The translations under genes and the position numbers were made by a program. Under the pieces are notes generated by a model. It made no database searches and was not told the origin of the DNA. It saw nothing but the letters and a program-made list of their open reading frames with translations. Shown here in pieces: positions 22,542 through 24,113 of a stretch of 64,000 bases of DNA. Source of the stretch: Limnothrix sp. BL-A-16 (GTDB lineage Bacteria; Cyanobacteriota; Cyanobacteriia; CACIAM-69d); the NCBI GenBank assembly GCA_041937175.2, contig CP166615.1, positions 416,001 through 480,000 of the forward strand, given 5' to 3'. The first letter of the stretch is position 1. Every line of letters starts with the position of its first letter.

Positions 22542-22683
22542 GGGACTGTCGCCAAATCGCCTGAAACCCTGATTCCACCGTTGGCAGCTCGTGGGGGGCA
22601 AGGGGCTTGAGCATCTTGTTACAACGACTGGGATATGGAAAATCAATCGTTTCCACCTGATCTTAGGAAATGACGACAGGCCC
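22542..22683. mobile_element. 142-bp MITE with 13-bp TIRs and TA duplication, inserted into a REP-like palindrome
   Basis: GGGACTGTCGCCA (22542-54) vs TGACGACAGGCCC (22671-83), 11/13 inverted match; TA at 22540-41 and, after removing the IS, TA at 24008-09; empty site CAAGGGGCTTAAGTCCCTTG. Confidence 0.7.
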
Positions 22684-22691
22684 TTGTATGT

Positions 22692-22920
22692 GGAAGGCGG
22701 TGGAGCAGGAAGGTTAAGCTCAGGCATAATCGACCCTCTCCCATCCGGTAGAGACTCTGGACAGGCCCTGAAGCTCCGAAGCTTGAGGCTTAGATTGAAG
22801 AGCCGACCGGAACCCGCCTTCCCGGACACTGCCAGTAGACTGAACAGTATTCAGAGTGACCGCTTGAGCGCTGTCACCTCGGATCAAGCAAGGGTAGCAC
22901 TGGGTCAGTGACCGTCCCTC
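22692..22920 (+). ncRNA. Predicted IS110 bridge RNA (target-binding loop plus donor-binding loop)
   Basis: LTG ACAGGCCCT 22761-69; RTG GGCTTAG 22787-93; LDG ACAGTATT 22844-51; RDG CAAG 22885-88; enclosing stems 22692-700/22814-22, 22744-49/22806-11, 22827-31/22906-10, 22832-36/22899-903. Confidence 0.85.
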
Positions 22921-22939
22921 TTTCTTGTCCACCCCAACC

Positions 22940-23953
22940 ATGACTAATCCAATCTATATTCCCCTGGGCATCGACATCAGCAAACACCACTTCGATGTTG
23001 CCCTCTGCAAAGCACCCTCGACCGCTCGCAGCAAAAGTGCCTTTCACACCAGCCAGTTTGCCAACAACGAAACCGGATTTCACGAATTACTCGCTTGGCT
23101 CGAACAACACCAAGTCCACCACATTCATGCTTGCCTAGAAGCAACTAACATTTATGGTCATGAGTTGGCAGCCTTCCTGTATCAACGGGAGCAGCGGGTC
23201 AGCATTGTGAATCCTTCCCAAGTCAAGGGCTATGGGCAAAGTCGCCTGAAGCGCACCAAGAGTGACCAGGCGGATGCGGGAGTGATTGCCCAATTCTGTC
23301 GTGACCTGACTCCTCCCCTGTGGGAACCGTTACCGGAAGCCCTAGAGCAATTGCAGCAGCTTTCCCGCCGCGTGGAAGCGCTGATCTCGATGCGGACTGA
23401 GGAGAAAAATCGGTTGGACTCTTGCCGTAATCCCCACTTACAGACTGATCTACAAGCCCATATTGCCTATCTGTCGGAGCGGATTGATGACCTAAAAAAG
23501 CTTATGCGCGAGCATATTCGCGCCCATGAAGCCCTTGCTCATCAAAGCCAATTGCTCTGCTCGATTGTCGGCATTGCGGAAACCACCGCCACCAACTTGT
23601 TGGCGGAGATTGGTGTGATTCAGCGCTTTGCTTCCGCTAGACAATTTGCGGCTTTTGCAGGTCTCACTCCCCGAGAATTTATCTCGGGGACATCTGTTCG
23701 CGGCAAGACTCGATTGTGCAAAATTGGTAATGGTCGGCTGCGAAAAGCCTTCTATTTTCCAGCCTTGTCAGCCTGTCGCTATTGTCCTGAGATTGCAGCA
23801 TTTCGCAACCGATTAGTCGCGGCGGGCAAAACACCCATGCAAGCCATTGGCGCTGTGATGCATAAGCTGGCCAGGATTGTTTTTGGGGTGCTGCGGCATG
23901 ACAGACCGTTTGACCCCAGCCAACTGGCAGTCACCACAGAGCCTTGCTCTTAG
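22940..23953 (+). CDS. IS110 family transposase / bridge recombinase
   Basis: RuvC-like DEDD (LGIDISK, CLEATN, KSDQAD); C-terminal Tnp domain with AFAGLTP..SGTS (catalytic Ser) and [10 protein letters not shown]; frame intact. Confidence 0.95.
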
Positions 23954-23980
23954 GCTTTACATTTTGTCACTTTCAGACCC

Positions 23981-24008
23981 TTGCGCCTCCTCGGCGAACA
24001 CAGTATCT
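23981..24008 (+). promoter_or_regulatory. Split promoter of the IS110 circle: -35 TTGCGC, 17-bp spacer, -10 TATCT+T completed on circularisation
   Basis: TTGCGC at 23981-86 and TATCT at 24004-08; joining to T22685 gives TATCTT; integrated form reads TATCTA. Confidence 0.6.
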
Positions 24009-24113
24009 AAGTCCCTTGCCTGGCGCTCAGGATTCTGATTTTTGATGTCGGTAGAGATTTTGAGTTGTGCTCTAATCAAAGATCTTTGACGGTGCTCGTT
24101 TTCCTACCTTCCT

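Follow-up and report, generated by a model that had tools for sequence, protein, structure and literature searches.

An IS621-like IS110 insertion sequence with a predicted cognate bridge RNA lies at the ends of host repeats in Limnothrix sp. BL-A-16

We analyzed a 64,000-nucleotide stretch of the genome of the cyanobacterium Limnothrix sp. BL-A-16 (GenBank assembly GCA_041937175.2, contig CP166615.1, positions 416,001 to 480,000 of the forward strand), hereafter called the window. Unless otherwise stated, positions are those of the window; the genome as a whole comprises 4.56 Mb in 2 contigs. The locus of interest is an insertion sequence of the IS110 family, made up of a non-coding left end of 255 bp (22685-22939), a recombinase gene, and a right end of 55 bp. 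Its left junction reads ACAGGCC-CT-TGTAT (22676-89) and its right junction ACAGTAT-CT-AAGTC (24000-13). The RNA-guided mechanism of IS110/IS621 elements was published in 2024, together with thousands of predicted orthologs (PMC11208160). A first-pass annotation, which a model made from the letters alone, had described the element as complete and as holding a readable bridge RNA in its left end, and all of the coordinates it gave for junctions, guide segments, and hairpins were confirmed in the window. We put the probability at roughly 90% that this is an intact insertion sequence of the IS621 clade with a cognate bridge RNA and a target of its own. The features are collected in Table 1.

To define the boundaries, we compared the copies of the element in the genome. 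There are four, 100% identical to one another, with identity starting and stopping at the same letters. A CT core is present on both sides in 4/4 copies, and the tips (TGTAT.. and ..ACAGTAT) show no inverted-repeat relationship. The left flanks of the four copies read (T/C/G)GA(C/T)G-ACAGGCC-CT, and the right flanks read CT-AAGTC, CT-AAGCC, CT-AGGCC, and CT-AGGAT. Every insertion (4/4) matches the left target, while the right target is matched in full in one and at fewer positions in three; across the four insertions, right-target positions 11-14 are matched less strictly than the left target. Shared boundaries and cognate flanks in other copies, which the annotation had named as a test, were found in all four. 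Genome-wide, only four genes matched PF01548, all of them belonging to these copies, and the bridge-RNA model matched four times, once per copy, with no orphan RNAs. The element was absent from two genomes of the same genus (G001 and G002), which do carry the repeats described below, and in G002 the flanking genes are adjacent at the syntenic locus, with the element absent. This absence indicates that the element arrived recently and spread within this strain. The G002 locus was also considered as a precise empty site, and this was rejected since the element and the repeat are both missing there. As a separate observation, all four copies (G000 C1:438676, 2154188, 3000069, and 3394383) lie on the same chromosome strand; with four copies, this could be chance.

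The element targets the junction between units of a host repeat family. The repeat immediately upstream of the element (155 bp) also has many copies in G001 and G002. The 14-nucleotide target ACAGGCCCTAAGCC occurs at 31 unoccupied exact sites in the genome, against 0.05 expected, and further free sites resemble it with one mismatch (52 sites) or two (83 sites). The consensus of the free sites, GA(C/T)G-ACAGGCC-CT-AAGCC-CCTTG, is longer than the target and falls at the end/start boundary of short repeat units. For the second copy of the element, the site is a boundary between units of a tandem array with a 68-bp period; 2.0 units (97% matches) lie just upstream, and the array resumes after the element.

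Some further properties of the repeat family can be described. Its units range from ~68 to ~150 bp, have several different interiors, and occur singly, in tandem, or inverted (e.g., L002:1371-1505). All of them end in GA(C/T)GACAGGCCCT and start with AAGCCCCTTG, and the unit boundary coincides exactly with the crossover point of the element, after CT. An inverted, near-cognate target is present at 22530-22556 (reverse complement GGCGACAGTCC-CT-AAGCCCCTTG), with one mismatch in the left target; this site is unoccupied and lies 130 bp upstream of the occupied one.

We next characterized the recombinase. Both domains of the family were identified well above their thresholds: PF01548 (DEDD_Tnp_IS110) scored 101.8 bits (cut-off 29) and PF02371 (Transposase_20) scored 85.9 bits (cut-off 21.3). 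The first is a RuvC-like DEDD domain at the N terminus, and the second is a C-terminal Tnp domain that holds the catalytic serine. The best relative of solved structure is the IS621 transposase (8wt6 and five more entries; E value 6.5e-68), which aligns end to end, and the second best is the ISCro4 transposase (PDB 9t56; E value 9e-66), which aligns over nearly the whole length. Residues D12, E67, D109, D112, and S249 are aligned opposite D11, E60, D102, D105, and S241 of IS621, in the numbering of PMC11208158; the PDB chain runs +2 against these numbers, as checked by A61 and G63. Both catalytic motif sets had been called intact, and the alignment of all five residues to those of IS621 agrees. 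An alignment of 29 proteins shows no variation at the four acidic residues and 90% or more conservation at S249. Nearly all of the named protein relatives are cyanobacterial. A blastn search with the whole element against E. coli genomes gave no match; IS621 itself was reached by tblastn in a plasmid collection.

The joined ends of the element form the donor ACAGTAT-CT-TGTAT. The annotation had equated this with the published IS621 donor, which was correct on two counts. First, the center of an IS621 donor DNA oligonucleotide is ACAGTATCTTGTAT, according to the methods of PMC13396178. Second, a real IS621 copy on an E. coli plasmid (L094, its gene annotated as “IS110-like element IS621 family transposase”) has the left junction ATCAGGC-CT-TGTAT and the right junction ACAGTAT-CT-ACGTG. 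To assess conservation of these ends, we used 83 loci, consisting of the four copies from this genome and 79 relatives at 45-64% protein identity. ACAGTATCT was present in 79/83 loci and CTTGTAT in 74/83. Both conserved ends, 1100-1500 bp apart and with enough flank, were found in 66/83 loci, resulting in 40 distinct elements; the remaining 17 loci were left out, having no usable end pair or too little flank. The donor is fixed throughout the clade and is not special to this element, which fits the published statement that the second loop of the bridge RNA is much more conserved than the first (PMC11208160).

The first loop of the predicted RNA holds two guides for the target. The left target guide is ACAGGCCCT. 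The right target guide, GGCTTAG, had been read as the reverse complement of CTAAGTC with one G:T pair; a G.T wobble is indeed found at this insertion, and the exact complement (7/7) is to CT-AAGCC, a sequence that flanks the second copy and is also the consensus at free sites in the genome. The letters TAGAT are near-invariant among relatives. Mononucleotide shuffling of the left end (200,000 rounds) yielded the 9-mer 309 times, the right target guide (7 nt) 2,842 times, and ACAGTAT 1,944 times, with all three together arising 0 times. Chance does not account for the combination.

The relatives allow the relationship between guide and flank to be examined across elements. An element's own left target plus CT was found in its own left end at 8/9 positions or better in 38/40 elements (24 at 9/9 and 14 at 8/9; the other two were at 7/9 and 5/9). 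In an alignment of 39 left ends (A2), from which L083 was excluded as its left end is ~150 nt longer, these matches lie in one column block. The identity of a guide to its own flank was 6.44/7, compared to 3.80 for the flanks of other elements. Across 16 distinct guide types, the summed identity was 99, with a permutation mean of 57.2 (standard deviation 5.5, maximum 85), and 0/100,000 permutations reached 99; guide and flank thus covary in homologs, a check that the first-pass annotation had put forward. Over 65 copies, the right target guide pairs at target positions 8, 9, 10, and 11 in 100, 100, 98, and 92% (position 11 in the cross control, 56%), and at positions 12-14 in 37, 34, and 42% (control 30, 25, and 29%). 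Given this weak pairing at positions 12-14, the right guide is usually short in the clade, in line with a published length of “4 to 7” nt (PMC11208160); the element described here, whose guide fits the consensus site at 7/7 positions, has one of the longer guides in the clade. As had been proposed, the target specificity differs from that of IS621, with ACAGGCC-CT-AAGCC here and ATCAGGC-CT-ACGTG in the IS621 copy that we read. Two relatives are unusual in their left ends: L083, with its longer left end, still carries a 9/9 left target guide, and L073 has its donor-loop region replaced by unrelated sequence.

The second loop holds the guides for the donor, and here the first-pass annotation needed some correction. 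It placed the left donor guide at ACAGTATT (22844-51), in which ACAGTAT is a 7/7 match to the left donor; the last letter, taken to be a wobble pair, is an eighth position that varies freely among relatives and says nothing about pairing. The right donor guide had been assigned to CAAG at 22885-88. However, CAAG occurs twice in a row, and alignment to 37 relatives and IS621 puts the guide at AT..GCAAG (22883-92), with AT at 22883-84, a 3-nt bulge, and GCAAG at 22888-92. In this register, its predicted pairing with CT-TGTAT is discontiguous and includes a G.T pair at donor position 12; a 9-on-7 discontiguous scheme has been described for the donor guide (PMC11208160). Regarding the adjacent handshake guide, the second G (G22894) is found in this element only (1/38). 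We did not accept pairing of G22894 with target C6 as meaningful, as it is without covariation (relatives have A or T whatever the target) and may be due to chance.

To evaluate the structure of the RNA, we drew it by hand from this element and the consensus, with two closing helices and a hairpin for the first loop and a closing helix and a hairpin base for the second, and scored it on an alignment of 38 sequences (A3, excluding L083 and L073). In this structure 75.0% of cells were paired, compared to 25-46% when partners were slid by 1-3 columns. Changes on both sides were found at 20/24 pairs, and 0/500 shuffles reached the observed values. The compensatory changes in the closing helices among relatives support the earlier description of both loops as closed by clear stems. 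A covariance model built from the 38 cyanobacterial left ends (R1) finds the IS621 left end along its full length (L094:434-587; 49.3 bits, E value 1.5e-12, model positions 1-165), and it also matches the left ends of a Cellvibrionales and an Anaerolineae relative. Comparison by eye shows the guide order and handshake letters to be as in IS621. The spacing from G80 to G165 given in PMC11208158 fits the IS621 copy exactly; nucleotide 1 of the IS621 RNA is thereby L094:403, 177 nt before the start codon, as published. RNAalifold on the 39-row left-end alignment returned one 5-pair helix only. Apart from the two loops, GGAAGGCGG (22692-22700) is perfectly complementary to CCGCCTTCC (22814-22822, in the linker between the loops); this pairing, seen in the minimum-free-energy fold, would hold the 5' stem-loop and the target loop between its strands.

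Table 1. Features of the insertion sequence and its surroundings, in window coordinates
Feature	Position	Strand	Evidence or remark
Dispersed host repeat copy; carries the left target and ends exactly at the core T	22529..22684	+	At least 13 further genome matches at 84-93%
Left target, ACAGGCC	22676..22682	+	Identical in 4/4 copies
Left CT core dinucleotide	22683..22684	+	Same in all copies
Insertion sequence	22685..24008	+	1324 bp, right-hand CT counted as the element's own; 4 copies at 100% identity
Right donor, TGTAT (left tip of the element)	22685..22689	+	CTTGTAT in 74/83 loci; same in IS621
Predicted RNA start (~22692) and 5' stem-loop	22692..22744	+	Stem GGAG.AGG/CCTCTCC in minimum-free-energy fold
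Target-binding stem-loop	22745..22810	+	Helices 22746-51/22804-09 and 22755-57/22800-02; 9/9 pairs change on both sides
Left target guide, ACAGGCCCT	22761..22769	+	Identical to left target plus core, 9/9
Hairpin inside target loop	22770..22785	+	AAGCT/CCGA/AGCTT at 22771-84; A-U to G-C swaps at two pairs
Right target guide, GGCTTAG	22787..22793	+	Reverse complement of CT-AAGCC
Target-loop handshake guide, AT	22794..22795	+	Matches IS621 A81/U82 in letters and place; pairing possible with donor T7 and A6
Donor-binding stem-loop	22827..22910	+	Helix 22832-36/22899-903 and 22827-31/22906-10; 5/5 inner pairs change on both sides
Left donor guide, ACAGTAT	22844..22850	+	36/38 relatives read ACAGTAT (one T for A, one inserted G); same in IS621
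Right donor guide, AT, bulge CAA, GCAAG	22883..22892	+	Alignment to relatives; IS621 has AT-TT-GCAAG
Donor-loop handshake guide, GG	22893..22894	+	Can pair with target C7 and C6; homologous to IS621 G166/U167
Recombinase gene, 337 aa	22940..23953	+	Open reading frame, Pfam domains, PDB relatives
-35-like TTGCGC, right end	23981..23986	+	17 nt before TATCTT; register found in 30/40 relatives
Left donor, ACAGTAT (right tip of the element)	24000..24006	+	ACAGTATCT in 79/83 loci; same in IS621
Right CT core dinucleotide	24007..24008	+	Same in all copies
Right target, AAGTC	24009..24013	+	One G.T wobble against the right target guide

The insertion is intergenic and disrupts neither neighboring gene. 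These neighbors are a mannose-1-phosphate guanylyltransferase-like gene (21364-22503; NTP_transferase and ManC beta-helix domain) and an EVE-domain gene (24114-24605).

Excision has been found to rebuild the promoter of the bridge RNA (PMC11208160), and the ends of the element are compatible with such an arrangement. The hexamer TATCTT exists only at the joined ends, where three letters come from the end of the donor, two from the core, and one from the start of the left end. In 40/40 distinct elements, joining of the ends places TTG[A/C]NN 16-18 nt upstream of a TAT.. hexamer, and the IS621 junction reads TTGCAG-N17-TATTAT. Two registers, offset by 7 nt, can be distinguished: 30 elements use TATCTT across the junction, and 10 elements, like IS621, use TAT with three left-end letters; one element fits both. 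The RNA would start near 22692, 7 nt after the junction -10 box, the same distance as in IS621. Another -10-like sequence, CATAAT at 22725-30, was dropped as it lies inside the 5' stem-loop and is without a -35 box.

By analogy with IS621, the following series of events can be proposed. Recombination between the two CT cores would excise the element as a circle, and the circle junction would put the -35 sequence TTGCGC of the right end 17 nt upstream of the -10 sequence TATCTT. The bridge RNA would then be transcribed from ~22692. Loop 1 of this RNA (ACAGGCCCT and GGCTTAG) would specify the target ACAGGCC-CT-AAGCC, while loop 2 (ACAGTAT and AT..GCAAG) would specify the element's own joined ends, ACAGTAT-CT-TGTAT. 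Finally, a recombinase tetramer with the RNA would pair the circle junction with a free target, with strand exchange at CT. On the same analogy, the recombinase is probably catalytically competent and its guides are probably programmable.

A number of results weigh against this interpretation. A consensus promoter scan of the integrated element returned 0 sites, and the -35 box, TTGCGC, is weaker than the TTGACA of relatives. The RNA-library data consisted of assembled contigs from three metatranscriptome libraries of two studies, to which one DNA run was added; the RNA-library contigs over the left end may be DNA carry-over, and contigs show neither transcription, start, nor strand. The circle junction was found 0 times in the genome and in none of the contigs of the 4 runs, where contigs drop rare forms. 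An Rfam scan of 22000-24600 by E value gave no family match, and the fold of the free left end is not distinctive (z = -1.2). The free-RNA fold also pairs the left target guide with the right target guide, which closes the first loop; this follows from the similarity of the two target halves, AGGCC and AAGCC. The structure that we scored was drawn from the tested sequences themselves, which favors it, and the relatives, being related to one another, are not independent sequences. Lastly, there are four insertions and 31 perfect free sites, suggesting that activity may be low.

Several details of the contigs were considered and set aside. Contig starts at 22664 and 22681 were rejected as RNA ends, since the DNA run also starts nearby (22660) and assembly branches at a multi-copy element. 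A 9-letter loose end in the DNA run was rejected as an empty site, as it could stem from another copy of the repeat (e.g., C1:722274). One RNA-library contig (run X17) starts at 22700 right behind adapter letters, 8 nt from the predicted start; this is a single contig that could begin at any fragment end, and it was not used as evidence.

Some of these points would also be expected if the element were a true IS621-type element that is now quiescent, its copies being a finished burst with no RNA or circle in present cells. We consider this unlikely, though it is the alternative that survives best. It would account for there being only four insertions when 31 perfect sites and 52 sites with one mismatch are free, for the degenerate -35 box, for the ability of the two target guides to pair together in the free RNA, and for the junction not being seen in the genome or contigs. 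However, no differences separate the four copies (100% identity), their frames are open and their catalytic residues intact, the absence of the element from same-genus genomes marks its spread as recent, and rare circles would not be visible in contigs.

It is also possible that the target is chosen largely through recognition by the protein of the shape of the repeat or of a longer sequence, with RNA pairing as one layer, as is proposed for ISPpu10 in a preprint (10.64898/2026.03.19.712850). GA[C/T]G precedes ACAGGCC in 4/4 left flanks, which extends beyond the guide (the RNA has CTGG there), and every insertion is at the end of a repeat. Yet the right flanks of the third and fourth copies are non-repeat beyond AGG, indicating that the whole repeat is not needed, and the extra conservation in the left flank is explained by the repeat itself. 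Pairing is shown to determine the site by the way in which guides and flanks covary over 16 guide types, and we judge this explanation quite unlikely. Highly improbable is the older idea from ISPpu9 (PMC11208160) that the left-end RNA, if made, regulates expression of the transposase and not recombination: the RNA does lie directly upstream of the gene and on the same strand, but regulation leaves unexplained why, in 38/40 elements, the outside flank recurs on the 5' side of loop 1, why loop 2 matches both tips of the element, and why the RNA shows homology to the validated bridge RNA of IS621.

Our preferred interpretation is thus that of an intact IS621-clade element with a cognate bridge RNA. 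Beyond it, we tentatively raise a bolder possibility, which we would not yet favor. The element may be active now and naturally fully matched to its target, with a 7-nt right target guide and a donor-loop handshake that can pair with two target bases; such a handshake had to be engineered into IS621. The 14-nt donor, in turn, may be fixed from cyanobacteria to E. coli as it doubles as the -10 box of a promoter that exists only in the circle, and this promoter role may explain why the donor is fixed in nature.

We compared the element to known systems, in particular to IS621 of E. coli (Durrant et al. 2024, PMC11208160; Hiraizumi et al. 2024, PMC11208158). The two share a two-domain recombinase with the same five catalytic residues, a CT core at both ends, the identical donor, and a long left end with a short right end. 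Their RNAs follow the same order, in which a 5' stem-loop precedes the left target guide, hairpin, right target guide, and AU handshake, followed by the left donor guide, hairpin, AU-bulge-GCAAG, and G-handshake. Wild-type IS621 likewise has a G.T pair at donor position 12 and a host repeat as its target, and the -35 box in the right end and -10 box at the joined ends that are predicted here have counterparts in IS621. The proteins, on the other hand, are ~40% identical, and the ends of IS621 measure 191 bp (left) and 107 bp (right) compared to 255 and 55 bp here. In the guides, the differences are as follows: the left target guide is ATCGGGCCT in IS621 and ACAGGCCCT here; the right target guide and handshake are TGCGTAG and AT in IS621 and GGCTTAG and AT here, where the guide is complementary over all 7 nt of the consensus site; and the right donor guide is AT-TT-GCAAG, with a 2-nt bulge, in IS621 and AT-CAA-GCAAG, with a 3-nt bulge, here. 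The donor-loop handshake is GT (GU) in IS621 and GG here, with both Gs able to pair with target C7 and C6. The -10 sequence of IS621, TATTAT, lies just inside the left end, whereas TATCTT spans the junction here. Furthermore, the two target guides of this element are complementary to each other, and the element is known from sequence alone.

Other members of the family are more distant points of comparison. ISCro4, an enterobacterial element, was compared by its transposase only; a cyanobacterial tree leaf labeled IS621;ISCro4 is listed in Supplementary Table 1 of PMC11208160. ISPpu9 and ISPpu10 of Pseudomonas putida (PMC12288879; preprint 10.64898/2026.03.19.712850) are also of the IS110 family and insert into multi-copy extragenic host repeats; they differ in host and in repeat (REP), and the likeness is one of description only. 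The IS1111 group has the same recombinase family but differs in having short left and long right ends and long sub-terminal inverted repeats, according to the legend of Extended Data Fig. 10 of PMC11208160. On the basis of its long left and short right end, we place the element in the IS110 group and not in the IS1111 group. A full-text literature search for bridge RNA, IS110, and cyanobacteria returned cyanobacteria named only in passing, in a review of genome-integration tools and in a Weissella genome paper.

The known mechanism is unchanged by this element. Rather, it provides a well-resolved natural example of a bridge recombinase from a phylum without a characterized one, and its four copies and 31 free sites in one genome show how such a system behaves in nature. 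The 40 related elements form a small, clean data set, with one fixed donor, 16 target guides, and two junction-promoter registers. A possible use is as an orthogonal recombinase for cyanobacteria. If the bolder possibility raised above were true, transcription would constrain natural donors in addition to RNA pairing, and cyanobacterial genome engineering would have a ready-made orthogonal tool in this element.

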